Positions 876-48,251 of a stretch of 64,000 bases of DNA are shown in pieces. Numbering within the stretch: the stretch's first letter is position 1; each line of letters starts with the position of its first letter. A program made the position numbers and the translations under genes. Source of the stretch: an uncultured Clostridia bacterium (lineage in GTDB: Bacteria; Bacillota; Clostridia; Christensenellales; UBA1242); the NCBI GenBank assembly GCA_949841045.1, contig CATKXS010000001.1:60717-124716 (forward strand), written 5' to 3'. The notes beneath the pieces were generated by a model. That model was not told where the DNA came from. It searched no databases and saw only the letters and a list, made by a program, of their open reading frames with translations.

Positions 876-944
876 ATGAAAAAGTTTATTGTAAGTTTAC
901 TTGGCATTTTTCTGCTCTTTGGTGCGTCAGTTTTAACAGCTTGT
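876..944 (+). other. lipoprotein signal peptide with lipobox (L-T-A-C) of giant ORF 1
   Basis: MKKFIVSLLGIFLLFGASVLTAC has a KK n-region, a hydrophobic core, and LTAC with Cys23 encoded by TGT 942-944. Confidence 0.75.
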
Positions 945-3900
945 AACAAGGGAGGCTCTTCCCTTACTTTGTCGCAAGATACTGTTGCAATTGAGCTCTT
1001 TGCAGATGACGAAGATAGTGGCTACGAATTAGTAACCGCCACTCTTTCTGGCGTGAAAGAGGGGTCCATTCAGGCTAGTGCTAGAAGTGGATTTGAAAAC
1101 ATTGTGAAGGTTACTCAGACCCGCCGCTCTTCTAACAGCATTTCAATCCGCATTGAGGCTCTTGAAGAGGGCTCAGCTCAGGTAGTAGTTCGTGGTGCGC
1201 CTGGCAATCATGTAAAATACATAAACGTAAATGTTTTTAGTTATGTAAGTTCAATGAGCCAAGTCGCTGAGGACGGGGATAAAAAGAATAATTTCTTAAT
1301 TCGTGGTAGTGAAAACATTTTAGATGAACATAAACTTATTTCATTTGCTCCTTCGGATAAGAGTTTATACAGCCTTACTTGGGATTTGTCTGAAGAAATG
1401 GCAGGCGTTCAAGATTTAGAACTTGAAGGTAATACTTTGACAGTTGGAAATAGTTTTCCAGTTGGTCAAGAAGTTAAACTTGTCGCCACAACTGAGAGAG
1501 GAGTAAGCACAACTATTACTCTTCCAGTAATCGACAAAATTGAAGATGAAATTAATTTTCAATTTTCATATAGCCAAAACTCAAGTTTTGAAGATATAAC
1601 AAGCGATAACAATTCATTTAATATTGTTCCAAATATTCCAAGCGATGCAAGCTATCAAGGCTACATTCTCCTTGACTATGCTGGCGACCTAGAAATTACA
1701 CCTTATGTACTGAATAGTGCAGGTCGTTTGACAGACGACATACAAGTTCTTGAAAATGGCAGATATAACGACAAGCCTCTTTATACTGTCTATGCAAGTA
1801 AAGATAAATCAAATATAAATGACGATTATAAAGTTGGTTTTAAAATCGGTTATAAAAACTATAACTATTTCCTCGACACAATTGAAAATAATCCTATCAT
1901 TATCAAAGCGAGAGAAATGGTCAACAGCATTATAGTTTCAACTAGAGATGCAAACAACATTGCGGGTAGTACGCAAACACTATATACAAATTACGCTGAC
2001 TCAAGCGATTCAACAATCAATGGACAACGTTTTGACCTTTCAATTACTCCAACAACGGTAGTTGATATGTCAAATAAATATAGAATTTCAGTTTCAAGAT
2101 GGAGACTTGGCGGTGAGGTGAGTAATGGCTGTCCAGTTGAAATTTGGTACAGAGATGCTGTCAATGGAAACGGCTGGAGACAGATTGATTTAAGAGAAGA
2201 TGAAAATCATAACTTTACAACCCAAAGTGATATGCTTCCAAATGTAAAAACTCTTTACATAAAAGCATCAGAAGGACTTAAAGTTCAGTCTAACAGTGAC
2301 TATCGAATCACATTCACAAGTGACGATAATCCAAATATTTCAACATACTTCAATCTTAAACTTGTAAAAAGTGCATCTATCAGTGAATTCGTTTTCAATG
2401 ATGCATCATTCAAAGTTGATAGTAGCGAACTCACTCAAGTTTACAAAAAGGTGTTCAATCTTAAAGGTCAAACAAGCATCGATGGACTTAAGATAAGAAG
2501 TGAAAGCGGAAATGTTACTTTTGGAAACATCATTCAGGTAGCTTCAGACGGCGAGTCTGTTGACTTTGAAGTGTCTTTCACTCTCAATAATTCAAGTTAT
2601 GGTGTAACAAGTCAAGATAGTTATTACATTGTTCACGAAAATGGACTTGTCAGCAGTGAATATTCAATTGATATTTTCCTGCCATTAAAACAGGCAAGCA
2701 TGCAACTTGATGTCGCAGAAAATAAATCTCAATCGGTGATTGACTATGCTCTTAGTGAAAATGTTTATGATGATTTTGGAACATCTCTTGGATTATCACA
2801 AAGCAGTTTGTCAAGTTTAACACTTAAAAACAATACTACAACTCCACTTATTTATTCATACAACAAAATTGGACAAAATAGTGCAGTAGCAAATATTTCA
2901 GTAAAATTCTATGATTATGAAGGCTTTGCTGGGACAGTCTCAGACTTTAAAGCTTTGAGTGCACTTGAAATTATAAGAGGTGCTCAAACTGACTCAAGTA
3001 ATGTGGTTTACTTTACAAGCGACTTCAGTTCAATTGTAACAAAAGGCGTTGGACGTACTTATGCGATTGTATCTTTCACTGGCAAAGGCGTGGGCGACAA
3101 CGTTGACGCAAATGGCAATGTGACATTTACAAGAATTATCTATATTGAAAGTTTGGTAACTCCAGATGGAATTAACATTGTCCCAGATGGCGACAAATAT
3201 GTCACACTTTATTCTCCAGACACGCTTGCAACAAGCGATGAAAGCCTTACTAGAAAAGATGTTAGAATAAGATTTAGTAAGGGTGATATAACTTACAAAA
3301 CAACAGCAAATGTTGAATTTATAAGTGGCAGAAATGTTATGGGAAGCCAAAGCGTCAGCGCTGACGGGACTTCAATAAGTTGGGCACAAGGCAGATATAG
3401 CCTTTCAAATGTCAATGTGTCTGGCGAAGGCATAACCTTTAATATCATTGCTGAAGACACTTATGGTGAAAACATTTTTACAGATACACTCAATGTTCAT
3501 TATGTCATTCGTGATGAAGAGCAAAAGAGAATTTATGATATTTACACAACTATTGAAATTACTATCAAGAATGCTCAAAGAGTTGAAAGTTTAAAGTGGA
3601 AGACTTATGACGCTGACGGTTTATACTTTGAGGTTGGCGACAATAGTCCACAATATTTACTTCTTGACATAAGTCCAACAAATGCTAGAAATAGAGGTGT
3701 GGCATATCTCATCACTGATGAAAAGGGTGCAGAAAGAAATTCTTTTATTACTGTAGGAGAGGGCGTTTCTTCTGATACTCTTGCAGTTAACCTTGAAAGT
3801 TCTATAAGAGAGGGTATGACTGGATACATCTATGTTTTACCAGCTGATGCAATTTACAATAATCAAATCAAGTATTACTATGTTGACAGCAAAGGCGTAG

Positions 3901-6900
3901 AGCAGTCAAATTCAATTTCTTATAACCTTCTTGCAGAAAACTATGATTATTTAGTAAGTAGCGCATATTTCAAATCAAATGCAACTGGCGGAGATGTAAG
4001 AGATGTAAAATTCTCAGATATTCTCATTAAAATAAAAGTTACCGTTGCAGACGGAAAGAGTTTTGATTATGCTTATAGAATTTATGACGCTTCAAGTTTT
4101 GCTAGTATAAGGTCAGACCTTTATTATCGCATAATGAACGATATTGATTTAAGTGGACAGTCAAGAGGAGCAATCACAAACTTCTCAGGTGGCCTTGAAG
4201 GTAAAACAAGTGATATTACAATCAAACTTGACGGTGACAATTTTGCTAGAACTCTCACTTCATCTGGTGAAATAAGAAATCTTACTTTCATTGGAAATGT
4301 TCAAGGAAATGGCTTTATTGTTGATGTCAATAATGGTGCAATTAAGAATGTAAAAATTGATGTGAATGGCCGAAAGGCAAGTACTCTCCAAGCTGGTGTT
4401 TTAGGTGGCGGTATTGCTGGCGAAAACAATAATCTTATTGAAAACGCTAGTGTACTTGGCCTTACTATTACTGCAAGAACAAGTGACAGTTATGTTGGTG
4501 GAATTGCAGGGCAAAATGACGGAAGAATTGAAGCTTCTAGAGTTGAATTCTATAACCTTGAAAAAGGCGAAGATGAAAATGGAAATATGACTTATGGCGT
4601 AAATACCTTTACAGGGAATTATGTCGGTGGTCTCGTTGGTCTTATTGGAGCTAGGTCTTCAATTAATTTCAGTTATGCATATGATTATACTCTTGCAGAT
4701 GGCAGTTCAAAATGTCTAAATGCAACAACAATCTCTGGTGCATTTGCAGGTACTGTTACTGGTAGCGGTGCTACTATCACAAACTCATTCTCAGTAATTG
4801 GCGAAGATTTGCCAAGTGACAACTATGAAAATGTGGCTTCTTCGGTGACTATTACAAGGTCATATATGTCATACTTCTCTGGCGAATATTATTCTCGTTA
4901 CTTTGATGAAAACGGAAGAAATAATTCTTCTAGCGTTGTCTTTGTTCAAAGAGACAATTCTCAATTTAAAGCATATGTAAATGGCGGAAATCCTTATCTT
5001 CCACAAATAATGCAAGATGAAAGGGTGACAACCGTTGATTATAGTGTTGCATCTGTTAAAGATGACCAAGATTACAATAAAGCGCTTGCAGTAAACAGCA
5101 CGAGAGGAATTGTATTCTTCTATAAACTTGAAAATAATGCAAGTGACCTTACAAGTTCAGAAATGGCCGACCTTAACGAACTTAATACAATTTCACTTTC
5201 TCAGCTTGTTGGGGAAGAGGTGAATAGAAATGTTATTGTTTCTTCATCAAATAGCCAAATCATAAAAACTGTTGGCTCTTCACTTATAGTTTTAAAAACT
5301 GGCGAAGTGACTCTGACATTATCTTCAAAACAAGATGTAACTCTTTCAAAAGATATTAAAGTAAATGTTGTTTATGCAATGTCTGACATGGTTATTTCAT
5401 GGGCAGATAACGCGGGAAGGGTGACAACTATTCAAGATGGAACAATGCTCGCTCTTCAAAAGACAACTTCAAGAACTTATAACATAAGTTATGATAAAAC
5501 TGAGGTTTATCTTGGCTCACTTGCATCAAGATATATCTTAGAACAAAATGAAATTACTATCAATGTTAAAAATACTCTTGCAAATGGGGCAGAAGGGAAT
5601 ATTGTTGATTACGAAATTTCTGGAAGCGACTTAAAACTTATCACTGGCAGTGACAGTGGCACGACAAACTTTGAAATTACTCCAGTTGTATTTGCTGACA
5701 GAACTCTTCAATCGGCAATTGATGGAAAATTTAAACGTAATTTCACTCTTAATCCAATTGACGGAGTTATCGACTTTGATATAGCTGGCGATGAACTTCC
5801 TATTACACCTTCTATAAAAGGCGAAATGGAAGTAAGAATTAGAACAACTGACGTTAGTGATAGTGTTTATCCAGTTATCTCATTTAATGGCGATACTCTT
5901 ATCGCAAAAGAAGAAAATGGTGTTTATAGATATTCAATAAGAGGTAGAGAGGACGCTATTTTAGAGGTTACTGTCAACCGTATTAAGGCTGAGGAAGGCA
6001 GCAATAACCTTAACACATACACATATGTTGTTACATTCTCAGTTTGTCCAGACAAGAGAGCAGAAATCTCTGAAGATATGGAATTTGACGTTTATATCAT
6101 GTCAAAGAGTGGCAACACAAGCAAAGAAGAAAATGGCGGTGAGTTTAAATTGACTCTCACTCGTCAAAACTTCACAAATATTGACGTATCGAATAAAAAA
6201 ATAAGCGAATCACATTATTACATGTCAGGTGATAATGTTGTTGAAGTGCATAGAGCAAACGAACTTACTTCTGTTCTTGCACCAGGAAATAGCTCAATAC
6301 TTGAAGTTAATGTCAACCCAAGCTATGCTTACTATGATTATGCAGAAATCACTTATAGCGGTGCGACTGTTTCAAATGCTGTCAACATTGAAGTAATGAC
6401 TCCTTATGCTGGAAGCGATGAAAACTTTATGCGCAGACCTTCTAATGGTGATATTGATGTGGTTGCAAACGCCTTAAGATTCTATCCAGATTCAGATGAA
6501 AAAGGAACGCTTTACTATAAACTTTGGATTGATACAACAGTAAATCGCGACACAACACTTCAATTTAGAATAGCCTTCTATGAAAAAGGTGGCAAAGAAA
6601 TAACTTATGTAAACTACTTTGTTTCAATAAGTTATCTCACAGAACCAGTAGTTACAATTGACGGTCAAACAACAGCTTACATTGCAAAAGGCTCAACTGC
6701 AATTGTAAAAATTGACGTTCTTGCAGACCAATCAATTGACAGCCTTATGCTTGACGGTGAAAATATCAAAGATGTAACTTTGACTCAACCTTCAAAACCT
6801 GTTGTCGATACCGTTAGAGGAATTAAAACATATGAAGCAAGACTTACAACTTTTGTGACTGCTTCAGCTGAGAATAGTACAATTTACATTCTCGCTCAAA

Positions 6901-9900
6901 TCTCTCGTGAACTCAACGGTTCAAAAGAAATCAAAAATTCTGTCGCAACTGGCGTCATTGTTAATTTCAAGATTGATGATGACATTATCATAAATGATAG
7001 GCCAGACGGCGTAATTACACTTTGGCAGGGTGTGCCAAGAGCGATAGGCGTAGATTATAACATTCTCCCAGAAAGCTATAATCTCGCCTCCGATGAGGAA
7101 AGTGAAAAAGCAATCGCTTATCTTCAAGGAGAAAGAAACATATTTAAAGATGCAGGCTTTTATCCTGCAAAAGCGGGTCAAATTGGTGGACAAAATGGAT
7201 ATGTTTCACTTGACAGACTCGAACTTGAAAATTATGACTACTTTGTAAATTACAAATATGATGAAAATAAAGAATTACAAGTTAAAAACTTGCTCGAAAG
7301 AATTTTTGTGATAAGCGGAAATGAAAGAATTCCTCTTGCTGACTCAAGCGTAAATACTCCAGTATCTTACTCATTTGATGAAATTACAAATTCTATTTCG
7401 ATGACAGGTACTAGAATTTCTAGTGGCACAAGAATGGTTCTTGAAACCTATGTTTCAGCTGGCGGAATTACTCAAACAATTGACACTTACTTTACAATCA
7501 ATGTTGAGGCTTACTCAGACCCAGACCTTCCTCTTCTTATTAAAAATGCGTCTGACTTTGAGAATTTAAGACCAACTGAAAATTCTACAGAAATAGTTAC
7601 AAATGACTATATTCTTACAAACGACATTGTACTTGAAAATTATACTTCTTTTAATACCGATTTAATTAGAAGTCTTGACGGAAATGGTTATACAATTTTC
7701 ATTAAATCATATGACGTTGAAGGTGAAGGTACGTTAAACCTTGCTCTATTCAATAGGGTTCTTGAAAATACTTTACTTAAAAATGTTAGAGTGAATCTTT
7801 ATAATGGTGGGCAACTTACTATTGATATAGATAAGCACTCCGATATTAACATTGCCGGTCTTGCAATTGAAAACAGTGGTATAATTACCAACTGTGAAGT
7901 TGTTGCTTTCTATACTGAAAGCAGGGCTATGGGTCTCGCTCTAGCACAAAATGCTTGCGAGCCACATAATGGAAAGGCTGGTTTTAATGTAAAATATATT
8001 CGTGGCGAAAATACAACAGAAAGTATTTTCATTACCGACAATCCAAACTGGTCAACACAAATGGCTGGATTTGTAATCAGTAACAGCGGTTCTATTACAA
8101 ACTCAAGAGTAGGTGGCGACAGCATTACAATTCTTGGCAGTGAAAGAACGGTGAATGGCAAGCCAAATGGCTACACTGACGCTTCAACTCTCGAACTTGG
8201 CACTTTCTATATGATAGGTCAAGGAAATATGGCAGGCTTTGTTATTACAAACTCAAGTGGAAATATCTCAACATGTTATGTGAAAAATATAGACATGGAA
8301 AACCAGTCAAATTCAACTTCATATTATGCGGTTGGCTTTGTTGGTACAAACTCAGCAAACATTAGCGTAAGCTATATTGAAGGCGTCCCAACACCAAAAT
8401 CTCAAGAGGATTCTGCTCTTTATAGTGCTTATGCTTATGAAGGCTCATCAATCAAGTCAAAAATGGGTTATGTAGTTGGTTTTGTTTATAGAAATAACAA
8501 CAGTATCAACGACTGCTACTCAAATATCTTGATTGCAAACTCAGAAGCTTCAAATAGCGTTTATCTTGCTTCAGGCTTCGTTTATGAAAACGTTGGAACA
8601 ATTGAAAATGCTTACTCAGCTTCTCAGATTAAAAATTCAATGAACACTCAGATGAACTTCTCAGGTGTTGATAAAAATGGTTATCTTCTCGCAAATGGTA
8701 CATATATTAACTGCTATTTCTTCAATAAACTTTATGAGAATTCAGAAGAGCCAACAGATAACACAACTGAAACACTTAACAATACCGGTGCAATGCTTAT
8801 TCCATCTCCAGACAATGCTTCAGACTTCTATGGCTTTGCAATTGCAAGTGGTGAGCGTGATGGTATTTGGAGAGTTGTTGAAGACGAAGGTATTTCGCTT
8901 ATAACAACTGAAATTCTTTCAATTTCTCATAGATATATATATTATGTAGATGGAGATAATTTTGAAGGTGTGACTGGCGAAGATGAAATAGGAAAATATA
9001 TTCTTCCATATTCAACTCTCTCTTACACAAATTCTTCTCTTGAAATTGACACCTCTCTTGGTGGAAGCTTTAACCCAATTATAATCTCTGATGCAGAGGA
9101 TTTTGTTGAGGTTAGTGGAACAAGTCAATCATCATATATTAGAGAGTACTTCAATAGCAGTGCTATGTGGGGAACATATAGACTTGTAAATAACATTAGT
9201 TTGACTTCTATGTCTGGCGGAGAAAGTCTTAATAATATCCCTTCTTCAGTAAAAGCATTCTCTGGTACATTCTACGGAAACAACTTCACAATTTCTGGAA
9301 TATCTCTTGCAACAGAAAACCCAGCTGTTTCAATTGGTCTATTCAAATCTATTGAAAAACGTGGACGAAATAATAATCCTATGATTATCGACCTCAACCT
9401 TGCCATAGACATGATTGACGGAAGTGTTGCTTCAATGGCGGGTGGTCTTGCAGGTTATATTAAAGACGCGATTATAGTTGGCGTAAATGTTAACTATGGC
9501 GAAAGCGGAAAGGTGACAGCACTCAACTTCGCTGGTGGTATCGCAGGACTTGTGTTCGGTGATAACAAAATAAGAAGTATTACTGTTACAAATCCAAATA
9601 TTACAGCTAAAAAATATTTAAATGATGACAACTCACAAGATGATTACTTCTTCTCAGACGAGAATAGGATTGCAGGTTCATTGCAAGCTCTCAGAACAAG
9701 CGTTGAAAACAATCTTAACTACAATACTCTTGTAAGTTCAGCGCTTATCACAAGCCTTGAAAAATATTCTTATGCTGGTGGTATATTTGGTCTTGCGGAC
9801 ATATTCGCAACTAATAATATAAACTTTGACATAAATCAAGCTGACAATTACGTTTTAAACAACGTTAGAGTAAACGGAAATGTTTATGTTGAAGGTCAAA

Positions 9901-12900
9901 TTGTCGGTGGTGCAATAGGACTTACTGGCTATCAAACAAATATCAGAGATTTGGGCGTGGTTATTAACTCAAACTCAGATTCTCATATTATCGCAACAAA
10001 ATATTATGCAGGCGGTGTAATTGGTCAATCATTTGGTTCAAACAGCAGAATTTTCGCAACCTATGACGAAGCGACTCAAGCTGTTATTGAAAACAAAATG
10101 GCTAATTTCTATGCTGGCAAAAATGATTTTGAACGCGGAAATCTCAACTTGTTCAATTTAAGTGGAACAAACTATAAACAAGTTTACATTGGCGGACTTA
10201 TCGGTGCAGCCTTTGGAGGAACACTTGAAGTATCATATTCAAAACTCAATGTAACCTCTATGACAGCTGACTATGCAGGTGGTCTCGTTGGTGGACTTAT
10301 GCTAGAAGATGCTGCGGCATATTTAGTAGATGAAAGAACTTCTATTTATTCAACATATTTCATTAAGGAAGCTTATGCAACCGGTGACGTACGTGCAAGA
10401 GTTATGGCAGGCGGAATAATTGGAAGAATAGTAAGTATTAAAGCACGCGTTGCTCTTCAATCGGTCAACGCAGTAAACTATTTCACAACTTATGATTATA
10501 TTAATGGCGTTTATGCTCCTATAAATCCAGAGATGTCAAACTTCTCAGAGATTTACAATGTAAATGCCTTTGTCGGTGAATTTGCAAAATATGATAATAG
10601 TGGCGAGATTGTGCCAGATGACCTGAACAATAAGACACTAGGCAGTGGCGAAAATACAGCCAAACCTACAGATTTTACCAACTATATTATCTTCTTGCAA
10701 AAAAATGCAGAGGGAGATAGCAGTACTGGCGAGACAGGAGCTCTTCCATCAGTTGGCTTCTATCAAGGTTATTATACTGGCAGAAATGGCGAGCCTATTT
10801 CTCTTAATATGTTTGGAAAAATCGACAGCAATATTAACACTAATCCTTATACTAGAGATGATGCTAAACTTGCGTTTGCAATTTCATCTCCAAACCTCTA
10901 TGACGGAGCGTCTGTCGGTTATCAATATACAAATGTAGCCTTTCTCGGCTCAAATGTTTGGGATGTTGCAAACTGGAAACAGGATATTGATGAACTTTTC
11001 CCAAGCATAAAATATAAGCGCTCTAGCAGTGTGTTATATCTTGATAATTACAATATAGATACAGTATTTAAGAAAATGGCGGGCGGAAATTATACTGTTT
11101 ACATTCGTGGACGTGTAGCCGAAGGCTCTGAGGAATGTGCAAACATTGACCTTATTAAGTACTATAACAATGGCGGAGCTGAATACATTGAAAGATTCTC
11201 TGGTAGACTTAGAGGTGGAATTTATCCAGTTGATAGTGACCAAAAGGTGAAGATTATCACTGACAGAACTTTCATTAAATCAGTTGCACCTGGCTTCTCA
11301 GCTACAAATGTTGAAGTTGTCTATACAAAGGAAAGTTATGAAAATTCTGCAACGTCGAATTTAGAATCAATCGCAGTTGGCAGAGTAGAAAATGATGGCG
11401 GACTCTTTATTGCAAGCGAAGCGGACAATGTTGTAATTAATAATCTTAAACTTATTCTTAATGATGAAATCAGTTTTTATTTTGCTAATGGAACAAGTAA
11501 TCAAGTGAAGTATGCAGGTCTTGTTGCTCCAACTTTGGTTAGCTCAACTCTATCTGGCATTTCAATTACAAGAACAACTGCCGGTGGCGGTTCTTCTGGT
11601 TACATAATGAATGTGAATGGCTCAAAACAAGAGGAAAGAGATTTACTTTATGTTGGTCTTATTGCTGGTTCAATTTCACAAAAAAGTACCGTTTCAACAA
11701 TGGTGATTGAAAATGTTTCTTTAGATTTTGAGGGTGACTTAATTTCTATTAATTCTGACTTAGGATTCCAAAATTATAATATTGGTACATATTTTGGTTT
11801 AGCAAATAGAGCATCAAATGCTCAGCCACTTAGAGTATCAATTTCAAAAATTGAAAGAAGTGGAGCGGTTGTAGGCAACCAAAAACCTCAAATTATTATT
11901 CAAGGTGAAAAAGCTGTCAACAGTGTAAATATTGGGGGATATATTGGTGTTGTTGCCGATGAAGGCAATGCTGGAATTGATGATTTGAGCTCTTATGCTG
12001 GAGATGCAGTTAGCGCAAATGTTACATTATGTATTTCACCTGAAGTTAAAGGGTTAATCAATGCTGGTGGAATTATTGGTTCTTTAAATAGCGCTTTAAC
12101 ATTCATTGCAGGGCAGTCAACTGTCAATGAAAGTTTAATTATTGAAAGAGATGCAAACAATGTCAATGCTGGTGGCTTTGCTGGTTATGTATCTGGTGGA
12201 GCGTTATCTGTAAATGGATTTGCAGGAATTGAATTTGGTGTATTAAATAAGGTGAATGATGCTTATAATAAAGGAACACAAATTCTCAGCGAAAAGGAAG
12301 AATTAGACGGAGGTTATGACGAAAGTTACAATGTAGAAGTCACAGGTACTGCAAACATTGGCGGACTTGTCGGTATGGCTTCAACTAGTGTTTCTTATGA
12401 TAATTCTTCAAGAGTTACTATTAATGCTAGGGTAGAAGATGACGAAAAAGTTTATGTAAATACCTTTGCTTTAAGTGCTAAAACTGTTAATGCGGGTTCA
12501 ATTATCGGCTCTTCAGTAGCAAGAGTTAAAATTTCTGCAAATGTACTCTCTAATACAGAATTTAGAGTAAAATCAACAAATGCACAAACTAATGTTGGTG
12601 GTATGGTTGGTTCAATTGTGATGCCAAATATCAGCTCTTCAGATAGTGATGTAAACATAAATACAGACTCACAAATAGGTGACACTGGTAAAACATTATT
12701 CTATGACGGTGCAACTTATTCAAATTCTAATAATTTATGCTTTGGTGGAATTCTTGGACATTATAGTGGTGAAAATGGTACAAAATTAACAATCACTAAC
12801 GCTTACTTTGGTGGTGTAGCAAAAGTTTATGGTACAAATTCTAATGGAGGAGCTGTTACTTTCGGTGGCATTCTTGGAAATGCATATATACATACTGGAG

Positions 12901-15900
12901 CAACAAATTCACAAGTTGTATTAAGTTTGAACTACACATATGGCGACATGTTTGTTGAGTATGGAACAACTCTTTCAAGTTTAAAAACGTATAACTTTGG
13001 TGGGGTTATTGGTAATCTTTTGAGTGGATTGACTTACAATGTTACTTCAAACTATTCACTTACAACCTCCCATAATGCTCGTTACAACTCTTCGATAGAA
13101 GTGTGTACACAAAATGCTCTTTTTGGAAATGGTGGTAGTGTGTTTGATGAACAAGGAAATACTTTGGGCAATAACGCTTATAACCACTCAGTTTCATTAT
13201 GTAACGACGAGTATGGAAATGATATAAGTTATAATGACTCAGCATACAATGGTTATCAAGGTGCTAGGCAAGACAACAGTTTTGTTAATACTCACTCGGA
13301 CATTGCAAGAATAATTAGTAATAATATAAGAGGTTATACAACCATTAATACTGGTCATAAACTAAGTCCAGGTAGCATTCAACTCGGAAGTTTATCTGCT
13401 GAGTTAAGCGATGCTAGTACATTTAATGGAATTACTTACTATAATATCAATAATGAAATCTTAGACCCAGGCAAAGACCAATTTGAAGAACTTAGGAATG
13501 TCGCTCTCTTTGGAAATGGTGGCAAATTAGCCTATAGAAATGAGGGAAGCTTAACAGATTTTATTACAGCAAAGTCATCTATAATAGGACTTCTAACTGG
13601 TTATTCTTCTGTTTCTGGTTTTGTACTTGATGTAAATGCTTCATATGATGTTGCCATGGCAGCTGGTGGAGAAACAGCGTTTGTTGCCCCTCTTGTAAGT
13701 CAAATGGAAGAAAACTCTATTGTTTATGCAATAAATGTGCAAGGAACATTGGACTATGGCGGTAGTGGTAACGCTATTGTTGCAGGGCTTGTGGGAAATC
13801 TTGTTTCTGGAAAGATTTTCGACTGTTCAACAGATTTGGATATAAGCTTTAGAGGAAGCCAGTTACAGAACAACGATAATGCTGGTATATTTGGCATAGC
13901 ATATATGTCGGTAAGCGAAAAACCTGATGATGATTATAGGTTGATTGAAAACACTTACTCAGCGGGTAGTATAAAGACCTATATTTCAATAGATGTCTAT
14001 GCCTTCTCAAACGAAGCAGGCTCATCAGATAAAACAAAAGTATACAACTGTTATACAATTACAAAACTTGATTTGAAAGATTATACTCGTGAGTCATTAG
14101 CAAGTAGTGGATATTTCTACACATTTGGCAAAGGTGTGAATGATAAAACATTTAATAGTTGCTTCTATGATAAAGATGCACTTAATGCAAATCTTACTTC
14201 AGGCGGCAAGTCAACAAATGTTTCTCATACAGAACTTCGCAACAATAAATATGGTGATAAAAATACTACTATATTTGCTAATGCAAGCAAGTGGACAACA
14301 GATTATGCATTTAATTATGGTTATCCAACTCTTAAGTATGGATACTTAAATCCATCATCTTATGTTGTACTTGAAAAATCAGAGTCTAAACTTAAACGAC
14401 TTCTTGATAAAGGGCAGTCAATTCTTGACCCTACAACAAGTAAATTATCAGCAGATGGAAATAACAACCTTTATGACAACTTTGTTGTAGAAAATAGTTA
14501 TTCTCGTCTTCCAAATGGCGAACAACCAAAATTTATTGATAATAAACTTACTTACGCAGGAAATGATTGCTATTACATGATTCCAAACGGGGCTATCCTT
14601 GCCAAGATGAATGAGACTTATACTTTAAATAAAGAAAATGTAGGACTTAAAAACAACTTCATTTTGAAATATGATATTAATCTTGCAAATACTTCACGTT
14701 TTACAACATCATTTAGTTATGATACAAATGTTAGTGCAATCTCAGGCTTAGACTTTACTGGAACATTTGATGGGCAAAACAAGACAATTCAAAATTCTAG
14801 AATAAACTTGTTTAGGTCGTTAAATGAAGCAACAGTAAGAAATTTAAGAATTACTGATTTCGCAAGTGCAGATAAACCAACACTTGCAAATGAAATCATA
14901 TCTTCAACTGTTTCAAATATGACCTTATCAGGTGATATAAAGGGTAGCACATCATCAATTAACATTGGCGGTTTGGCTTTAACTGCTATTAATTCTAAAC
15001 TTGAAACTATTACAAACCTTGTTTCAATAAATGTTAATGTTCAGACGAAACTTACAACTGAAATTAGTATTGCAGCAGGTGGACTTGTTGGTATTATTTC
15101 AAATACTCGAGTTGATTTCTGTTCTAACTATGGACCTATAAATGTCAGAGTTAATAATGATGGTAAGATGCTTGCAGTAGGTGGACTTGTTGGTGTTATG
15201 TATGACGGAAATGAAAATAATACTATCAGTTATAGTTACAATTCAAGTTCAGTTCTTGGTAACTATGTAAATGATTCTTCAGAGCAAACAACTCAAGGCT
15301 TGTTCTTCACGGGCGGACTTGTAGGTTATAATGTTGGTGGAGTGATTAAAAATAGTTACAACACTGGTATGGTTAAGTCTGGTAATAAATCAAACACGGC
15401 AGGAACAGAGTCAGATATATCAGAAAATAACAACAAAATAACTGCAGTAACGACAACAGGTGAAGGTTTTCAAACCGAAACAAAGCAGTCAGAATTCTGG
15501 CTTATTAATAATGAGAAAACTACCTTTAATGAAGACCAACTTTATTCTTCATATGCTGGCGGTATTGCCGGTTATATAGCAGGAGGCGTTGACAACTGCT
15601 ATAATGAAGGTACAGTTGAAGCGTTAGGAGAAAATCCACATACCAAGTGGATATGGAGAAAAGTTAATGGAGACCCTGTTGTTGCAAGAGCTGATATAAC
15701 TAGACTCTCTTATGAACAAACTTCTAATAGAAATGTTTACGCGTATGGTATTGGTGCAACCAATAACAGTTCAACCATATCAAATTCAACTATAAGGTTG
15801 TATAATATGGATTCAGACTACTCGACAATTTACAGCAATGGTGCTTCACGAGATAGTGGAGAAATTTATTGGAGAACATTTAAAGATATTATAGATAGTG

Positions 15901-18900: not shown

Positions 18901-20288
18901 CAGATTATAAAATAATAGAAAACGCTACTATAAAGAACAATAAAGTTTATTCTGAAGATATTAAGCTATATTCAGAAGTGCAAATGAGAGAAATATCATA
19001 TAAAGAATTCTTGATGCCTGAGTATAATATGATAAATATAAGCTTTGCATATAATGGTATGAATTTTGATAAAAATGAACTCTCCAGCTTCTTTGTTGGA
19101 GCAGAGCTAATTGAAGATAAATATTACAAAGTTCAAGGTAATGCAATTGACATTTGTTTACGTAATAATGAAGAGCAAGGAATTATTAGAGGCGTTTTAG
19201 AGGGAAGTGTAAGTGAAAGCGACGTGACATTAACTGCTACTGGAACTAAAGAAGAATTTAACGTTTTACTTCGCTCAGATATTTCAGTTGATGAACAATT
19301 AAATTTCTCTGGTAAATATAATATCATAGGTGATGGTTACTATTTAGCTTTCAAATCAAACACCTTATATGCAACGATTTATAACGGAAATGGAAAATCA
19401 TTTATAAGTAATATTCTCTTCTTGGGAGATACTTATGGAGAAAAGTCGTTCTTAGTTGGAAACACCAACAATTCTACTAAATTTTATGATGTCAAACTTT
19501 ATGGAAGTGTAACAAATGCAAATAATAATAATTCTGTAATTATCAATGGTGCAAGTCAGATATTGATAGATTCATACTTGTCAATCAATGGTTATAATAC
19601 AGATAAAAATATTACGTTATATGGTTCATGTTCTTTAATTGACAGTGAAAAATCAGCAAATAAAGGTGTCATAGTAACTGCCAGAGGAAAAGATGGTTTT
19701 GGCTATGTAAATGGTGGCACTGGTAAAAAAGGTGAAGACGGTGGCAAAATTACAGCTGGTTCTGAAAATTCGAAATTAAAAATAAAGAATGCAGGTGTAA
19801 TTGTCCTAGGAAGCGGTGGTAGTGGTTATCATGGAAAAGAAAAAAGCTTTAATTACAGTCAAGCTATGGCAGAAGGTATTTCACAATATGCTGGAGGAAT
19901 CAAGGGCTCGGATGGTAAAGTTGTTGGAATAGACAATATTGAAGGGCAAGGAATGATTCATACACTTACTAATAGTGAATCAGGAAAAGCTGGCTTTATT
20001 CAAAGAGCAAGATTGGAAAATGACGTTGTACAAAAAGGGCATCTAGTACTTGTAACTAAAACGATTTCTGGCATTCTTGATGCGCAAGCTGTAGTTATCA
20101 ATGATAGCAGTAGGATTAAATATGCCAATAGTTCTGAGTTCCAAAAAGTGACGATTAGTTACGACAGAGCTGATTGCAAGCAAAATTTAAATAGCTTATT
20201 ATTCGACTTGTTTAATGTTGATAAAGTCTCAGGTTCTAAACTTGGATTGAAATCGTCTTATAACAAAGATGGTACATTACTTAAATAG
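876..20288 (+). CDS. giant surface lipoprotein (6,470 aa) with a Big_2-like N-terminal domain and multiple GLUG-motif beta-helix-like modules
   Basis: The frame is open for 19,413 nt from ATG 876 to TAG 20286-20288, with a strong RBS and a lipobox. Residues about 28-120 (LTLSQDTVAIEL...GSAQVVVRG...YINVNV) resemble a Big_2 Ig-like fold. More than 35 G-G-[LIV]-[AIV]-G type motifs are present. All reverse-strand ORFs inside it are short shadows. Confidence 0.9.
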   Translation: MKKFIVSLLGIFLLFGASVLTACNKGGSSLTLSQDTVAIELFADDEDSGYELVTATLSGVKEGSIQASARSGFENIVKVTQTRRSSNSISIRIEALEEGSAQVVVRGAPGNHVKYINVNVFSYVSSMSQVAEDGDKKNNFLIRGSENILDEHKLISFAPSDKSLYSLTWDLSEEMAGVQDLELEGNTLTVGNSFPVGQEVKLVATTERGVSTTITLPVIDKIEDEINFQFSYSQNSSFEDITSDNNSFNIVPNIPSDASYQGYILLDYAGDLEITPYVLNSAGRLTDDIQVLENGRYNDKPLYTVYASKDKSNINDDYKVGFKIGYKNYNYFLDTIENNPIIIKAREMVNSIIVSTRDANNIAGSTQTLYTNYADSSDSTINGQRFDLSITPTTVVDMSNKYRISVSRWRLGGEVSNGCPVEIWYRDAVNGNGWRQIDLREDENHNFTTQSDMLPNVKTLYIKASEGLKVQSNSDYRITFTSDDNPNISTYFNLKLVKSASISEFVFNDASFKVDSSELTQVYKKVFNLKGQTSIDGLKIRSESGNVTFGNIIQVASDGESVDFEVSFTLNNSSYGVTSQDSYYIVHENGLVSSEYSIDIFLPLKQASMQLDVAENKSQSVIDYALSENVYDDFGTSLGLSQSSLSSLTLKNNTTTPLIYSYNKIGQNSAVANISVKFYDYEGFAGTVSDFKALSALEIIRGAQTDSSNVVYFTSDFSSIVTKGVGRTYAIVSFTGKGVGDNVDANGNVTFTRIIYIESLVTPDGINIVPDGDKYVTLYSPDTLATSDESLTRKDVRIRFSKGDITYKTTANVEFISGRNVMGSQSVSADGTSISWAQGRYSLSNVNVSGEGITFNIIAEDTYGENIFTDTLNVHYVIRDEEQKRIYDIYTTIEITIKNAQRVESLKWKTYDADGLYFEVGDNSPQYLLLDISPTNARNRGVAYLITDEKGAERNSFITVGEGVSSDTLAVNLESSIREGMTGYIYVLPADAIYNNQIKYYYVDSKGVEQSNSISYNLLAENYDYLVSSAYFKSNATGGDVRDVKFSDILIKIKVTVADGKSFDYAYRIYDASSFASIRSDLYYRIMNDIDLSGQSRGAITNFSGGLEGKTSDITIKLDGDNFARTLTSSGEIRNLTFIGNVQGNGFIVDVNNGAIKNVKIDVNGRKASTLQAGVLGGGIAGENNNLIENASVLGLTITARTSDSYVGGIAGQNDGRIEASRVEFYNLEKGEDENGNMTYGVNTFTGNYVGGLVGLIGARSSINFSYAYDYTLADGSSKCLNATTISGAFAGTVTGSGATITNSFSVIGEDLPSDNYENVASSVTITRSYMSYFSGEYYSRYFDENGRNNSSSVVFVQRDNSQFKAYVNGGNPYLPQIMQDERVTTVDYSVASVKDDQDYNKALAVNSTRGIVFFYKLENNASDLTSSEMADLNELNTISLSQLVGEEVNRNVIVSSSNSQIIKTVGSSLIVLKTGEVTLTLSSKQDVTLSKDIKVNVVYAMSDMVISWADNAGRVTTIQDGTMLALQKTTSRTYNISYDKTEVYLGSLASRYILEQNEITINVKNTLANGAEGNIVDYEISGSDLKLITGSDSGTTNFEITPVVFADRTLQSAIDGKFKRNFTLNPIDGVIDFDIAGDELPITPSIKGEMEVRIRTTDVSDSVYPVISFNGDTLIAKEENGVYRYSIRGREDAILEVTVNRIKAEEGSNNLNTYTYVVTFSVCPDKRAEISEDMEFDVYIMSKSGNTSKEENGGEFKLTLTRQNFTNIDVSNKKISESHYYMSGDNVVEVHRANELTSVLAPGNSSILEVNVNPSYAYYDYAEITYSGATVSNAVNIEVMTPYAGSDENFMRRPSNGDIDVVANALRFYPDSDEKGTLYYKLWIDTTVNRDTTLQFRIAFYEKGGKEITYVNYFVSISYLTEPVVTIDGQTTAYIAKGSTAIVKIDVLADQSIDSLMLDGENIKDVTLTQPSKPVVDTVRGIKTYEARLTTFVTASAENSTIYILAQISRELNGSKEIKNSVATGVIVNFKIDDDIIINDRPDGVITLWQGVPRAIGVDYNILPESYNLASDEESEKAIAYLQGERNIFKDAGFYPAKAGQIGGQNGYVSLDRLELENYDYFVNYKYDENKELQVKNLLERIFVISGNERIPLADSSVNTPVSYSFDEITNSISMTGTRISSGTRMVLETYVSAGGITQTIDTYFTINVEAYSDPDLPLLIKNASDFENLRPTENSTEIVTNDYILTNDIVLENYTSFNTDLIRSLDGNGYTIFIKSYDVEGEGTLNLALFNRVLENTLLKNVRVNLYNGGQLTIDIDKHSDINIAGLAIENSGIITNCEVVAFYTESRAMGLALAQNACEPHNGKAGFNVKYIRGENTTESIFITDNPNWSTQMAGFVISNSGSITNSRVGGDSITILGSERTVNGKPNGYTDASTLELGTFYMIGQGNMAGFVITNSSGNISTCYVKNIDMENQSNSTSYYAVGFVGTNSANISVSYIEGVPTPKSQEDSALYSAYAYEGSSIKSKMGYVVGFVYRNNNSINDCYSNILIANSEASNSVYLASGFVYENVGTIENAYSASQIKNSMNTQMNFSGVDKNGYLLANGTYINCYFFNKLYENSEEPTDNTTETLNNTGAMLIPSPDNASDFYGFAIASGERDGIWRVVEDEGISLITTEILSISHRYIYYVDGDNFEGVTGEDEIGKYILPYSTLSYTNSSLEIDTSLGGSFNPIIISDAEDFVEVSGTSQSSYIREYFNSSAMWGTYRLVNNISLTSMSGGESLNNIPSSVKAFSGTFYGNNFTISGISLATENPAVSIGLFKSIEKRGRNNNPMIIDLNLAIDMIDGSVASMAGGLAGYIKDAIIVGVNVNYGESGKVTALNFAGGIAGLVFGDNKIRSITVTNPNITAKKYLNDDNSQDDYFFSDENRIAGSLQALRTSVENNLNYNTLVSSALITSLEKYSYAGGIFGLADIFATNNINFDINQADNYVLNNVRVNGNVYVEGQIVGGAIGLTGYQTNIRDLGVVINSNSDSHIIATKYYAGGVIGQSFGSNSRIFATYDEATQAVIENKMANFYAGKNDFERGNLNLFNLSGTNYKQVYIGGLIGAAFGGTLEVSYSKLNVTSMTADYAGGLVGGLMLEDAAAYLVDERTSIYSTYFIKEAYATGDVRARVMAGGIIGRIVSIKARVALQSVNAVNYFTTYDYINGVYAPINPEMSNFSEIYNVNAFVGEFAKYDNSGEIVPDDLNNKTLGSGENTAKPTDFTNYIIFLQKNAEGDSSTGETGALPSVGFYQGYYTGRNGEPISLNMFGKIDSNINTNPYTRDDAKLAFAISSPNLYDGASVGYQYTNVAFLGSNVWDVANWKQDIDELFPSIKYKRSSSVLYLDNYNIDTVFKKMAGGNYTVYIRGRVAEGSEECANIDLIKYYNNGGAEYIERFSGRLRGGIYPVDSDQKVKIITDRTFIKSVAPGFSATNVEVVYTKESYENSATSNLESIAVGRVENDGGLFIASEADNVVINNLKLILNDEISFYFANGTSNQVKYAGLVAPTLVSSTLSGISITRTTAGGGSSGYIMNVNGSKQEERDLLYVGLIAGSISQKSTVSTMVIENVSLDFEGDLISINSDLGFQNYNIGTYFGLANRASNAQPLRVSISKIERSGAVVGNQKPQIIIQGEKAVNSVNIGGYIGVVADEGNAGIDDLSSYAGDAVSANVTLCISPEVKGLINAGGIIGSLNSALTFIAGQSTVNESLIIERDANNVNAGGFAGYVSGGALSVNGFAGIEFGVLNKVNDAYNKGTQILSEKEELDGGYDESYNVEVTGTANIGGLVGMASTSVSYDNSSRVTINARVEDDEKVYVNTFALSAKTVNAGSIIGSSVARVKISANVLSNTEFRVKSTNAQTNVGGMVGSIVMPNISSSDSDVNINTDSQIGDTGKTLFYDGATYSNSNNLCFGGILGHYSGENGTKLTITNAYFGGVAKVYGTNSNGGAVTFGGILGNAYIHTGATNSQVVLSLNYTYGDMFVEYGTTLSSLKTYNFGGVIGNLLSGLTYNVTSNYSLTTSHNARYNSSIEVCTQNALFGNGGSVFDEQGNTLGNNAYNHSVSLCNDEYGNDISYNDSAYNGYQGARQDNSFVNTHSDIARIISNNIRGYTTINTGHKLSPGSIQLGSLSAELSDASTFNGITYYNINNEILDPGKDQFEELRNVALFGNGGKLAYRNEGSLTDFITAKSSIIGLLTGYSSVSGFVLDVNASYDVAMAAGGETAFVAPLVSQMEENSIVYAINVQGTLDYGGSGNAIVAGLVGNLVSGKIFDCSTDLDISFRGSQLQNNDNAGIFGIAYMSVSEKPDDDYRLIENTYSAGSIKTYISIDVYAFSNEAGSSDKTKVYNCYTITKLDLKDYTRESLASSGYFYTFGKGVNDKTFNSCFYDKDALNANLTSGGKSTNVSHTELRNNKYGDKNTTIFANASKWTTDYAFNYGYPTLKYGYLNPSSYVVLEKSESKLKRLLDKGQSILDPTTSKLSADGNNNLYDNFVVENSYSRLPNGEQPKFIDNKLTYAGNDCYYMIPNGAILAKMNETYTLNKENVGLKNNFILKYDINLANTSRFTTSFSYDTNVSAISGLDFTGTFDGQNKTIQNSRINLFRSLNEATVRNLRITDFASADKPTLANEIISSTVSNMTLSGDIKGSTSSINIGGLALTAINSKLETITNLVSINVNVQTKLTTEISIAAGGLVGIISNTRVDFCSNYGPINVRVNNDGKMLAVGGLVGVMYDGNENNTISYSYNSSSVLGNYVNDSSEQTTQGLFFTGGLVGYNVGGVIKNSYNTGMVKSGNKSNTAGTESDISENNNKITAVTTTGEGFQTETKQSEFWLINNEKTTFNEDQLYSSYAGGIAGYIAGGVDNCYNEGTVEALGENPHTKWIWRKVNGDPVVARADITRLSYEQTSNRNVYAYGIGATNNSSTISNSTIRLYNMDSDYSTIYSNGASRDSGEIYWRTFKDIIDSGVMNTFYQGEKAIYSTLHLWQNLPDINIWLGAIVSWLYLFDWTQTWIGRQVVFTTTFQIPKVNEVAYDSNFDEVTDANFNSDKPNPNECSESNVAPVNTLSTDALGLAIGYQITFHSKYKVQQNKFTYAIKSGTANYSNFNDLINAKWSDKKNELDEGIYEDGDSVSSENVISQAYSSSLPENLYYKESYERRPYEYDEFNKSFNWNNLCSNEYKEGEVKVVTDYDSSTMRNIKENTRSVEEEGEINSLKIAGNPYYILDHNNVTSVLNSGIFISKPQKVRFSSDKLPYIANKGLYSMEIKGHNELNPIITSVSQEGNETIVEYKVSSAEEINIANCEVIISMSYEQEVTFDLSSLKYSYYDDYSVGIEIGLMDYSVLDQYTLYYENSKEPDGFAVKNNVIRIRKEGASNVSDTDDANENYIYLFYDEAEGKFVYVPNAGLITSTGKKIEKINKSNYSLRGDENFIENVKNIINELKGKTYYSRVTKQSSTYASLFSNNQSLFTRYYESNGNYTAGESSKENAVIKYGSTVSNVIGAMIYENDGYVVTLDNNGKDIIALNGTTPVMSYNSSTDLWYSDINSIEGMSAQVVGNKLKILSSESTEAQNKIQTYLNKLMFISDDWSEKEFISKYENIRTSIRYNIPENESYGVDFIRTIKHDWIYNADNKFTFKEINNRLYIAVDSDYTALTKYSLGGVTVSYGEENIEITDSYTSKITSFSLRSPGRVSVEISFSKNGTTHTFKNFTSSNNHSASFDKEMSDAITDGIFNMQLKYYPSYTTNSVSVDEGYNYHLVLEKNGQIYYVEASFDEELINNAQSGITATIDSVSKIYTSSNGNLLIRAEYLESKTQEGAVSKTKVYSINGTKVLTINETEGELEYTVYYDSDGNLLYTPAVDKDGNPIKDEHGNDVPPVEGDTTESKPSNIYYRSNIFRPGTANPEVIDLIGDGYISSVDDLHDPLIFNESLKMISDEHTETIKPASSEGAGDGVSVKVARRYVYLEADYKIIENATIKNNKVYSEDIKLYSEVQMREISYKEFLMPEYNMINISFAYNGMNFDKNELSSFFVGAELIEDKYYKVQGNAIDICLRNNEEQGIIRGVLEGSVSESDVTLTATGTKEEFNVLLRSDISVDEQLNFSGKYNIIGDGYYLAFKSNTLYATIYNGNGKSFISNILFLGDTYGEKSFLVGNTNNSTKFYDVKLYGSVTNANNNNSVIINGASQILIDSYLSINGYNTDKNITLYGSCSLIDSEKSANKGVIVTARGKDGFGYVNGGTGKKGEDGGKITAGSENSKLKIKNAGVIVLGSGGSGYHGKEKSFNYSQAMAEGISQYAGGIKGSDGKVVGIDNIEGQGMIHTLTNSESGKAGFIQRARLENDVVQKGHLVLVTKTISGILDAQAVVINDSSRIKYANSSEFQKVTISYDRADCKQNLNSLLFDLFNVDKVSGSKLGLKSSYNKDGTLLK
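4400..4800 (+). repeat. GLUG-type glycine-motif block 1 (coding, giant ORF 1)
   Basis: LGGGIAGENNN, YVGGIAGQNDG, YVGGLVGLIGA and ISGAFAGTVTG, following the module head YYRIMNDIDLSG...FSGGLEGKTSDITI at 4122. Confidence 0.7.
7850..8625 (+). repeat. GLUG-type glycine-motif block 2 (G-F-V variant)
   Basis: IAGLAIENSG, MAGFVISNSG, MAGFVITNSSG, AVGFVGTNSAN, VVGFVYRNNNS and ASGFVYENVG, following the head NDYILTNDIVLEN...SLDGNGYTIFI at 7602. Confidence 0.7.
9434..10440 (+). repeat. GLUG-type glycine-motif block 3
   Basis: MAGGLAGYIKD, FAGGIAGLVFG, YAGGIFGLADI, IVGGAIGLTGY, YAGGVIGQSFG, YIGGLIGAAFGG, YAGGLVGGLML and MAGGIIGRIVS, following the head GTYRLVNNISLTS...FSGTFYGNNFTISGI at 9171. Confidence 0.75.
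11511..13030 (+). repeat. GLUG-type glycine-motif block 4
   Basis: YAGLVAPTL, YVGLIAGSISQ, NIGGYIGVVAD, NAGGIIGSLNS, NAGGFAGYVSGG, NIGGLVGMAST, NVGGMVGSIVM, FGGILGHYSG, FGGILGNAYI and FGGVIGNLLSG. Confidence 0.7.
13775..13905 (+). repeat. GLUG-type glycine-motif block 5 (short)
   Basis: IVAGLVGNLVSGKIFDC and NAGIFGIAYMS. Confidence 0.5.
14961..15612 (+). repeat. GLUG-type glycine-motif block 6
   Basis: NIGGLALTAIN, AAGGLVGIISNTRVDFCSNYG, AVGGLVGVMYDG, FTGGLVGYNVGGVIKNSYNTG and YAGGIAGYIAGGVDNCYNEG, following the head NFILKYDINLAN...FTGTFDGQNKTIQN at 14651. Confidence 0.75.
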
Positions 20289-20648
20289 TAGGTAGGCTAA
20301 AAGAAGGGTGAGCAGGGATGCTGCGAAGGCTGATAGGAAAGTCGTAAGTACGGCTTGCCAGAGGCGAGGGGGATTTTCTCCCTCCCTTTTTTTATTCGTT
20401 TCAGCCTCTAAAATTTCACTTCCATAGGGCAGAAGGCAGAGGCAATACACGCCGTCATCGTCATATTTGATTGAAATATATTCTTGGCGTTCAAGATAAA
20501 TCAAAATGTTGTCCAGCCCGTCCAAATCGACACGATATTTATTAGGCATGGCAGAAATAATGTCCTTCGCTTCCACTATATTGAAAGCTCCATTTGGACA
20601 TTCCTTTGCGAGTATTTTTAACACTAGTTTTGATTTTATATCAAGCAT
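20277..20648 (-). CDS. small winged-helix-like protein with a C-terminal transmembrane tail anchor (123 aa)
   Basis: I trimmed track ORF 20277-20840 to the internal ATG at 20648. The upstream 64 codons are Phe/Ile/Ser-rich junk that runs across the divergent gene. The sequence is MLDIKSKLVLKILAKECPNGAFNIVEAKDIISAMP...LDNILIYLERQEYISIKYDDDGVYCLCLLPYGSEIL, followed by a basic linker and the hydrophobic tail LWQAVLTTFLSAFAASLLTLLLAYLLFK. Its stop overlaps the end of giant ORF 1 by 12 nt. Confidence 0.6.
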   Translation of the reverse strand: MLDIKSKLVLKILAKECPNGAFNIVEAKDIISAMPNKYRVDLDGLDNILIYLERQEYISIKYDDDGVYCLCLLPYGSEILEAETNKKREGENPPRLWQAVLTTFLSAFAASLLTLLLAYLLFK

Positions 20649-20724
20649 TAAATAATTTTTGCCACTGTGGGGTAATTGTAAACTTAAATTATGTATGTTT
20701 TTTAAAGAAAATGGCAATAAAAAA

Positions 20725-21093
20725 ATGAAAATTATGCAAGAACGAAAGGAAAAATTGGTTTTAAAATATTTGTGCAGGGTATGTTCTGGAAAGAAAACAT
20801 ATCTTATTTCTCCGCACGATATAGCAAAAGAGGTGTGCAATAAAGTTATATTATCAGTGAACGAAATTGATGAGATTATGACAGGGCTTTCTATGCAAAA
20901 TTATATTGATTTTGTAGTGTCTGACAGTAAAAATGGCTATTTTTATTGTGTAAAACTCAAGAAAAAAGGGCAGACCTATTTGTCTGATGCAAAAAAGCAG
21001 AAAAAAGCACTCATGATGCTTGTGCTTCGAAGCATGTTTTTGGCAACAGTCAGTTTTGTATTTGGACTTATTCTAAAGGCAATTTTTAAGTAA
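20725..21093 (+). CDS. paralogous small winged-helix-like protein with a C-terminal transmembrane tail anchor (122 aa)
   Basis: I trimmed track ORF 20659-21093 (TTG start) to ATG 20725; ATG 20734 is an alternative. The sequence is MKIMQERKEKLVLKYLCRVCSGKKTYLISPHDIAKEV...IDEIMTGLSMQNYIDFVVSDSKNGYFYCVKLKKKGQTYL, followed by a KK-rich linker and the tail ALMMLVLRSMFLATVSFVFGLILKAIFK. It aligns with the divergent neighbour at KLVLK.L..C, DI, YI, Y.C..L and G..L, and has the same architecture. No clear SD is present. Confidence 0.55.
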   Translation: MKIMQERKEKLVLKYLCRVCSGKKTYLISPHDIAKEVCNKVILSVNEIDEIMTGLSMQNYIDFVVSDSKNGYFYCVKLKKKGQTYLSDAKKQKKALMMLVLRSMFLATVSFVFGLILKAIFK

Positions 21094-48204: not shown

Positions 48205-48251
48205 ATAAATAGTACATTTTGATTTAACCAAAAAAAGAAATGAGGTGTCAA

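Follow-up and report, generated by a model that had tools for sequence, protein, structure and literature searches.

A giant predicted surface lipoprotein of uncultured gut Clostridia carries repeated GLUG-type beta-helix modules

In the IgA1 protease, access to the active site is gated by a small beta-helix of its N-terminal domain (PMC7695701). GLUG proteins of gut archaea have been proposed as adhesins (PMC9723798), and the beta-solenoid domains of serine-rich repeat proteins (SRRPs) and of Giant1-4 from A. kunkeei mediate binding (PMC12863079). Here we describe a giant gene in a 64-kb stretch of DNA from an uncultured Clostridia bacterium (contig CATKXS010000001.1; we call the whole stretch the window, and nucleotide positions refer to it). 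The product is probably a giant surface lipoprotein with seven beta-helix modules of the GLUG/IgA1-protease type, acting as a non-enzymatic adhesive or spacing fibre and not as a protease.

The gene is a single unbroken open reading frame (ORF) at 876-20288 on the forward strand, which encodes 6,470 amino acids (aa) and is immediately preceded by the strong Shine-Dalgarno sequence AAGGAGG. The N-terminus of its product, MKKFIVSLLGIFLLFGASVLTAC, is a lipoprotein signal that includes a lipobox. Residues 1-24 consist of MKK, a hydrophobic stretch, LTA and the cysteine, and match the lipobox pattern [LVI][ASTVI][GAS]C of bacterial lipoproteins, the substrates of Lgt and Lsp. A lipobox-type N-terminus was present in 50 of 81 family sequences, and several of the other 31 ORFs are truncated at the 5' end. 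The signal peptide is the sole strongly hydrophobic segment of the protein (Kyte-Doolittle 2.38); a candidate transmembrane segment near aa 5040 was rejected by the hydrophobicity check, which found no internal hydrophobic segment. We conclude that the product is a predicted membrane-anchored surface lipoprotein. Very long ORFs are sometimes artefacts and the assembly is of metagenome type, which would favour an assembly or annotation artefact such as a chimeric contig or fused genes. We give this explanation next to no credence: an identical protein is on public record (P0003), and 67 independent assemblies from different hosts contain collinear ORFs, each 5,200 aa or longer, in which the modules follow the same order.

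We read each module as a cap and a head (Y-x-L-x-x-D-I-x-L ... F-x-G-x-F-D-G-N-G-x-x-I) followed by a stack of rungs. The rungs, of about 25-45 residues with a G-G-hydrophobic-x-G or G-F-V turn, would stack as a right-handed beta-helix. The initial annotation had listed four heads and a degenerate fifth. All of the quoted strings are present within a few bases, at aa 1083 (nt 4122), aa 2243 (nt 7602), aa 2767 (nt 9174, annotated as 9171), aa 4594 (nt 14655, annotated as 14651) and aa 6128 (nt 19257, annotated as 19267), but two further heads had been overlooked, which profile comparison placed at aa 3422 (nt 11139) and about aa 4205 (nt 13488). In 2,000 shuffles of the protein, 0.015 matches to a head regular expression were expected against the three observed. 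The rung core GG[LIVFM][AIVLGT]G matched 20 times against 0.48 expected, with a maximum of 4 in any of 2,000 shuffles.

The number of rungs depends on how they are counted. More than 35 had been claimed, and the regular expression given for them literally matches once, while a looser core matches 21 times. An external rung hidden Markov model (HMM) picked up only 11-15 rungs, and an iterated single-rung HMM drifted to canonical rungs and gave a lower count. In their place we relied on conservation within the family: G..G cores shared by at least 70% of the 81 members, counted from sequence only, give about 33-39 rungs, and the earlier figure was thus right in spirit. The G-F-V variant described for block B holds throughout the family. 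Five copies lie at nt 8061-8588, alongside IAGLAIEN at nt 7851, and no orthologue has GGxxG in block B. The whole protein has six G-F-V copies, five of them inside block B, against 0.27 expected by shuffling.

A search with the Pfam GLUG HMM (PF07581; gathering score 20.5 bits) exceeded the threshold in one block only, with 23.8 bits at aa 4591-5050 (module F). Scores for module A (18.5 bits) and module C (8.1 bits) were below threshold, and modules B, D, E and G had no Pfam GLUG match. The head together with its rungs had also been equated with the Pfam motif. The 28-position model spans one rung and not the head, although the modules are of GLUG type by profile. The head of F weakly resembles the end of Peptidase_M26_N (last 70 positions, 14.3 bits against a cutoff of 27.7). 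A recurring C-terminal "tail" (C-Y-Y...W...[YF]-P-x-L) seen by eye was not supported by profile comparison.

The case that the blocks are of one type is carried by hhalign comparison of profiles built from an 81-sequence family alignment; profiles from three orthologues had given weak signals (E 1e-4 to 6e-3). Module A matched F at 98.5% (E 2e-15) over 202 columns, from the cap through the rungs, and matched B at 98%. B matched F at 96%, and C matched F at 98.8% (E 5e-17). The head of D matched those of C (95%; aa 3421-3618 against 2771-2911) and A (91.5%), and its rungs matched C at 97.6% and F at 97.2%. Module E matched A from the head of A onward (93.5%; aa 4184-4367 against 1079-1273) and F at 96.2%. 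The degenerate head annotated at 19267, which lies in module G, reached 18.7% at best before realignment. After realigning 38 orthologues, its support became moderate, with 88.4% against F (E 3e-6) and 86.6% against B (E-values from about 3e-6 to 5e-6); the family consensus of G, IILxxDI...NIIGNGYxISY....LF, resembles a head.

We also built an external GLUG profile from unrelated GLUG proteins among the homologue matches. Against this profile, hhalign gave 99% for A, 96.4% for B (head only), 99% for C, 92-97% for D, 96% for E, 99.9% for F and 78% for G. Six non-GLUG control regions of the giant protein reached at most 6% with any profile and less than 0.2% with the external one. Each module is about equally close to the external profile and to its sister modules. 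Taken together, the profiles delineate seven predicted modules, A-G, each with its own head and G moderately supported (Table 1).

Table 1. Predicted features of the giant protein and their positions in the window
Feature	Residues (aa)	Description	Coordinates	Strand	Basis
Lipoprotein signal peptide and lipobox		MKKFIVSLLGIFLLFGASVLTA, then C	876..944	+	read from sequence
Module A	1062-1300	cap, head YYRIMNDIDL..FSGGLEGKTSDITI, ~4 glycine-core rungs	4059..4775	+	hhalign, Pfam GLUG 18.5 bits
Module B	2215-2600	head NDYILTNDIVL..SLDGNGYTIFI, G-F-V rungs	7518..8675	+	motifs, AlphaFold, hhalign
Module C	2745-3200	head TYRLVNNISL..FSGTFYGNNFTISGI, 8 conserved GGxxG rungs	9108..10475	+	hhalign, model, glycine cores
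Module D	3421-4070	degenerate head ANIDL..ERFSGRLRGG, 11-13 rungs	11136..13085	+	hhalign, conserved glycine cores
Module E	4184-4420	degenerate head ..ELRNVALFGNGGKLAY, ~3 rungs (VAGLVGN, AGIFGIA, YAFSN)	13425..14135	+	hhalign, model 2
Module F	4563-4920	canonical head NFILKYDINL..FTGTFDGQNKTIQN, 4-5 rungs	14562..15635	+	Pfam GLUG, PDB profile match, model
Module G	6124-6270	diverged head FNVLLRSDISV..NIIGDGYYLAF, rungs without glycine core	19245..19685	+	hhalign, moderate support
Glycine-rich cluster	6275-6350	GGTGKKGEDGG..GSGGSGYHGK..GGIKGSDGK	19698..19925	+	family-conserved, not GLUG-type

The initial annotation had noted that GLUG motifs are generally taken as rungs of a right-handed beta-helix and had linked them to IgA1-protease-like proteins, and this was borne out both by PDB sequence matches of the F profile and by the top structural matches of two predicted models. 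Against PDB sequences, the F profile matched chains of the S. pneumoniae IgA1 protease (6xjb, 6xja and 7jgj) with E 1e-19 over about 240 residues and those of the G. haemolysans enzyme (7uvl and 7uvk) with E of about 1e-17 to 1e-18. The region matched is the N-terminal beta-helix domain (PMC7695701).

AlphaFold2 model 1 covers aa 2215-3400 (B+C) and was computed from a nine-sequence alignment; model 2 covers aa 3860-5050 (late D+E+F) and was computed from a shallow alignment. Both chains gave beta-helix matches, as had been anticipated for the blocks, although confidence was partial, with a mean predicted local distance difference test (pLDDT) of 63 and 66, respectively. In model 1, which shows a short-strand beta-helix pattern, pLDDT was 85-95 over aa 2215-2615 (B) and 60-90 for C. 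The best Foldseek match was 3n6z (E 4e-4, probability 1.0, target template modelling score [TM-score] 0.46), followed by generic right-handed beta-helices and IgA1 proteases. In model 2, pLDDT was 82-97 for F and 55-88 for E and the end of D. The best matches were 7uvk, 3n6z, 6xjb and 6xja, each at probability 1.0, and generic right-handed beta-helices came next. Across both models, top matches had probabilities of 0.7-1.0, and spacer stretches were modelled at low confidence. The models support a right-handed beta-helix fold for the stretches B+C and late D+E+F, each taken as one chain.

The homology of module F to the beta-helix that gates substrate access in IgA1 proteases, together with the weak Peptidase_M26_N match, could suggest that the giant protein is itself an M26-like enzyme or helps one to capture its substrate. 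This reading is barely credible and is largely refuted, because the catalytic domain is absent. There is no HExxH in the 6,470 aa, a Pfam scan of the protein found neither Peptidase_M26_C nor G5, the C-terminus lacks LPXTG, and the homology is limited to the beta-helix. Besides GLUG, no further Pfam family was above threshold in the giant protein, and an NCBIfam scan of it gave no match.

The Foldseek matches also included PL6 alginate lyases, pectin methylesterases, tailspike depolymerases and GH110. The modules or the spacers between them could accordingly be enzymatic, making the protein a giant cell-bound glycan depolymerase, lyase or esterase in the manner of PL6 lyases, pectin methylesterases or phage tailspikes, and the unusual conservation of module B and the two thirds of the protein that carry no annotation would be in keeping with this. 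We consider it quite unlikely. Those matches had probabilities of 0.03-0.9, and their TM-scores were of the size that generic beta-helix similarity usually gives, whereas the matches at probability 1.0 were non-catalytic GLUG/IgA1-protease helices; no CAZy-type Pfam family was detected, and by sequence the modules group with GLUG.

The unannotated part amounts to about 4,000 residues without a Pfam or NCBIfam family, including 876-4058, 5076-7517 and 15876-19244 of the window (aa 1-1061, 1401-2214 and 5001-6123). The spacers between modules range from 100 to 1,200 residues and contain no recognisable domain, and the non-GLUG regions were equally devoid of Pfam matches in three diverse orthologues. 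The N-terminal spacers show weak mutual profile similarity (E 0.007-0.02), which hints at an undetected repeated domain. The glycine-rich cluster that follows module G has the family consensus GxxGxxG / GxGGNGGxG; its profile had no PDB sequence match, and the window's own sequence had no Pfam match there.

We examined relatives of the protein in several ways. A HMMER search with block F over 1.84 billion representatives returned only 56 proteins at E <= 1e-3, among them P0004, a collinear orthologue of 6,358 aa with 46% identity over 5,500 residues. A cluster look-up added P0058, a family member of 6,737 aa. Scanning one genome per GTDB species yielded 318 loci with a relative of B+C. The best 80 of these 318 all came from metagenome-assembled genomes of uncultured gut Clostridia (mouse, human, deer, rabbit and chicken) and were 30-69% identical across all 1,186 residues of the B+C query; nearly all had a giant collinear ORF of 5,300-6,800 aa or an ORF cut by the contig end. 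The sole named genera among the relatives, Ca. Caccovivens and Ca. Caccopulliclostridium, belong to GTDB family UBA1242 (PMC8035907). An orthologue census comprised 67 giant ORFs that reach 5,200 aa or more and show identities of 13-69%. Modules A-F were collinear in 65-67 of the 67 and module G in 57.

In the window, the neighbours of the giant gene are the housekeeping genes uvrB, uvrA, metG, nrdD, rsmH, glyS and a gene for a SpoVD-type penicillin-binding protein, with uvrB next on the 3' side, and the G+C of the locus is about 35%. We therefore regard the locus as chromosomal, in an anaerobic Firmicute of low G+C. Three relatives have loci that extend far enough to show the 3' side, and in each of them uvrB also follows the giant gene. 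It is possible, though we put it forward only tentatively, that the protein founds a new family of lipid-anchored envelope fibres (5,300-6,800 aa) that is inherited vertically throughout the clade and characterises UBA1242 and its relatives. If so, the family would be present in hundreds of species in the guts of mice, humans, ruminants, rabbits and chickens, and its fixed seven-module scaffold, with about 4,000 domain-less residues, would form a surface organelle not described before and dominate the contact of these small-genome commensals with the host or with other cells.

The modularity had been judged old rather than a recent expansion, and three observations agree with that judgement: long DNA repeats are absent, BLASTP finds no self-matches, and the modules are collinear in 57-67 of the 67 orthologues. 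The longest direct DNA repeats in the giant ORF are 20-32 nt, mostly on GGxxG-coding cores, and no meaningful tandem DNA repeat was found. When 150-aa windows were compared with the protein itself by BLASTP, there was no match at E <= 1e-3 and only marginal ones at lax settings; the modularity is invisible to pairwise methods. These results show, at the level of sequence, that the duplication or acquisition from which the modules stem is ancient and that their number and order were fixed across the orthologous family. One of the short direct repeats, of 20 nt with 95% identity (13116-13135 and 13503-13522), encodes ALFGNGG at aa 4081 and aa 4210; the first copy lies at the end of module D and the second is the head motif of module E.

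Conservation is unevenly distributed along the chain. Identity to the closest orthologues was 50-70% over aa 1-3200, 28-44% over aa 3500-4100 and 10-35%, with gaps, over aa 5000-6470. In the 81-sequence alignment, conservation is good over the N-terminal two thirds and poor over the final 1,500 residues, which are often gapped, and module B (aa 2215-2600) is the best conserved segment of the whole protein. A structural envelope component, such as a spacer, sheath or S-layer-like fibre that shapes the surface without a specific ligand, would account for the strong conservation of the membrane-proximal two thirds, for the constancy of module number and order across many species and for the synteny with housekeeping genes. 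We think it unlikely, however: the variable C-terminal 1,500 aa better fit an exposed tip under selection, and no S-layer-homology or cell-wall-binding domain was detected with Pfam. The same conservation profile, together with the conserved glycine-rich cluster near the end, could also be that of a polymorphic toxin or contact-dependent effector, in which a conserved stalk delivers a variable C-terminal payload. This reading is very unlikely: at about 1,500 aa, the variable part is larger than a short toxin tip, toxin and immunity families were not detected, and the gene that follows is uvrB rather than one for immunity. For the enzymatic, structural and toxin explanations alike, positive support is limited to generic fold similarity.

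We favour the non-enzymatic fibre, for which the following arrangement can be proposed. Lipidated Cys24 would hold the chain at the outside of the cytoplasmic membrane, and the conserved N-terminal two thirds would project from the cell as a rigid, segmented stalk. The beta-helix modules may serve as stiff spacers that also offer flat lateral binding surfaces, and the poorly conserved C-terminal 1,500 residues, module G included, would form an exposed, fast-evolving tip. A tethered stalk, beta-helical binding faces and a variable tip would together make an adhesive or spacing fibre without enzymatic activity. Adhesion would be the most likely function, because other beta-solenoid surface proteins bind (PMC12863079) and GLUG proteins of gut archaea have been proposed to do so (PMC9723798).

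Several points weigh against this interpretation. The function assigned to the fibre is argued from analogy, and the literature on GLUG contains almost nothing functional, the motif being without an established function. For modules D, E and G the evidence comes solely from profile-profile comparison: neither the D+E profile nor the G profile had a PDB sequence match. A word-indexed homologue search with block D+E also returned nothing. The two structural models are only partly confident by mean pLDDT, and the Foldseek matches, at modest E-values of 4e-4 to 5e-3, apply to whole modelled chains and not to single modules. The peak of conservation in module B could reflect a specific activity instead of a passive spacer, and a catalytic or other activity could hide in the roughly two thirds of the protein that have no detectable domain.

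Other ORFs in the window were also noted. A second giant ORF at 48240-58691 on the forward strand encodes 3,483 aa with an N-terminal membrane-like segment and has no Pfam family at E <= 1e-3; it was considered as a paralogue of the first and rejected, as it has no GLUG-type motifs. The two giant ORFs together occupy about 47% of the window. A gene resembling phospholipase D (PLD)/cardiolipin synthase follows the second giant ORF at 58723-60180. On the reverse strand, a TTG-start ORF of 187 aa (20277-20840) overlaps the 3' end of the first giant ORF by 12 nt and may be spurious, and a 615-aa protein encoded at 26797-28644 has no Pfam or NCBIfam match. The N-terminus of an 840-aa protein encoded at 35024-37546 on the forward strand matches the Colicin V production (CvpA) family.

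In a widespread uncultured lineage of gut Clostridia, one of the largest genes now has a concrete predicted architecture, with a lipid anchor, seven modules and a variable tip. The analysis also suggests that the GLUG module can be reused as a repeated scaffold in proteins that are not proteases; the module is little studied, and its known structures are confined to IgA1 proteases and a single structural-genomics entry. For annotation, Pfam's single-rung GLUG model misses six of the seven modules, and current domain libraries leave some 4,000 residues of each protein undescribed.

Among known systems, the M26 IgA1 metalloproteases (6XJA/6XJB and 7UVK/7UVL) are related to the giant protein through the sequence homology of module F to their N-terminal beta-helix. 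In contrast to these enzymes, the giant protein has no middle or catalytic domain, HExxH, G5 or LPXTG. Whereas one small helix gates the active site of the IgA1 protease (PMC7695701), the giant protein would have seven helices and no enzyme to gate.

Large surface proteins with beta-solenoids offer a looser parallel. The binding region of the L. reuteri SRRP (5nxk) also belongs to a large Firmicute surface protein with a right-handed beta-solenoid, but it was a generic fold match at probability 0.66. The A. kunkeei extracellular proteins Giant1-5, of 3,000-8,000 aa, share the size class and the beta-solenoid (PMC12863079). SRRPs and Giant1-5 have one N-terminal solenoid and serine-rich or alpha-helical rods, and differ from the giant protein in their anchoring and repeat types. 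No sequence relationship to them was detected, and the giant gene has no tandem DNA repeats and its product no Pfam SRR-type domains. Autotransporter passengers (Ag43, pertactin and Hbp) likewise use a long right-handed beta-helix as an adhesive surface scaffold (Foldseek probabilities 0.03-0.18). Unlike the giant protein, they rely on Gram-negative type V secretion with a C-terminal barrel and form one continuous helix that lacks the GLUG head and rung signature.

Finally, the protein resembles the GLUG proteins (PF07581) themselves. BACOVA_03286 of Bacteroides ovatus (3n6z, a "putative IgA1 protease"), which ranks first or second among the fold matches of each model, shares the head-plus-rung module and the fold, and the canonical GLUG protein P0002 has an identical head (YVLTDDINA...FTGTFDGQNHSI) followed by GGLxG rungs, as does the giant protein. 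The stacking of six modules had been called unusual, which is only weakly true: among external GLUG matches, the unrelated P0011 (1,656 aa) carries five head motifs, P0030 four and several others two or three. GLUG members among the matches are typically 300-1,800 aa long, whereas the giant protein has 6,470 aa, a lipid anchor and seven modules set amid long unannotated regions; in a further difference from typical members, a single one of its modules reaches the Pfam threshold and G-F-V replaces GGxxG in module B. Judged by these head motifs, module stacking is ordinary for the GLUG family. Less ordinary are its size and lipid anchor, the long spacers without annotation, the extreme divergence of its sister modules and an architecture that is fixed across an entire uncultured gut lineage.

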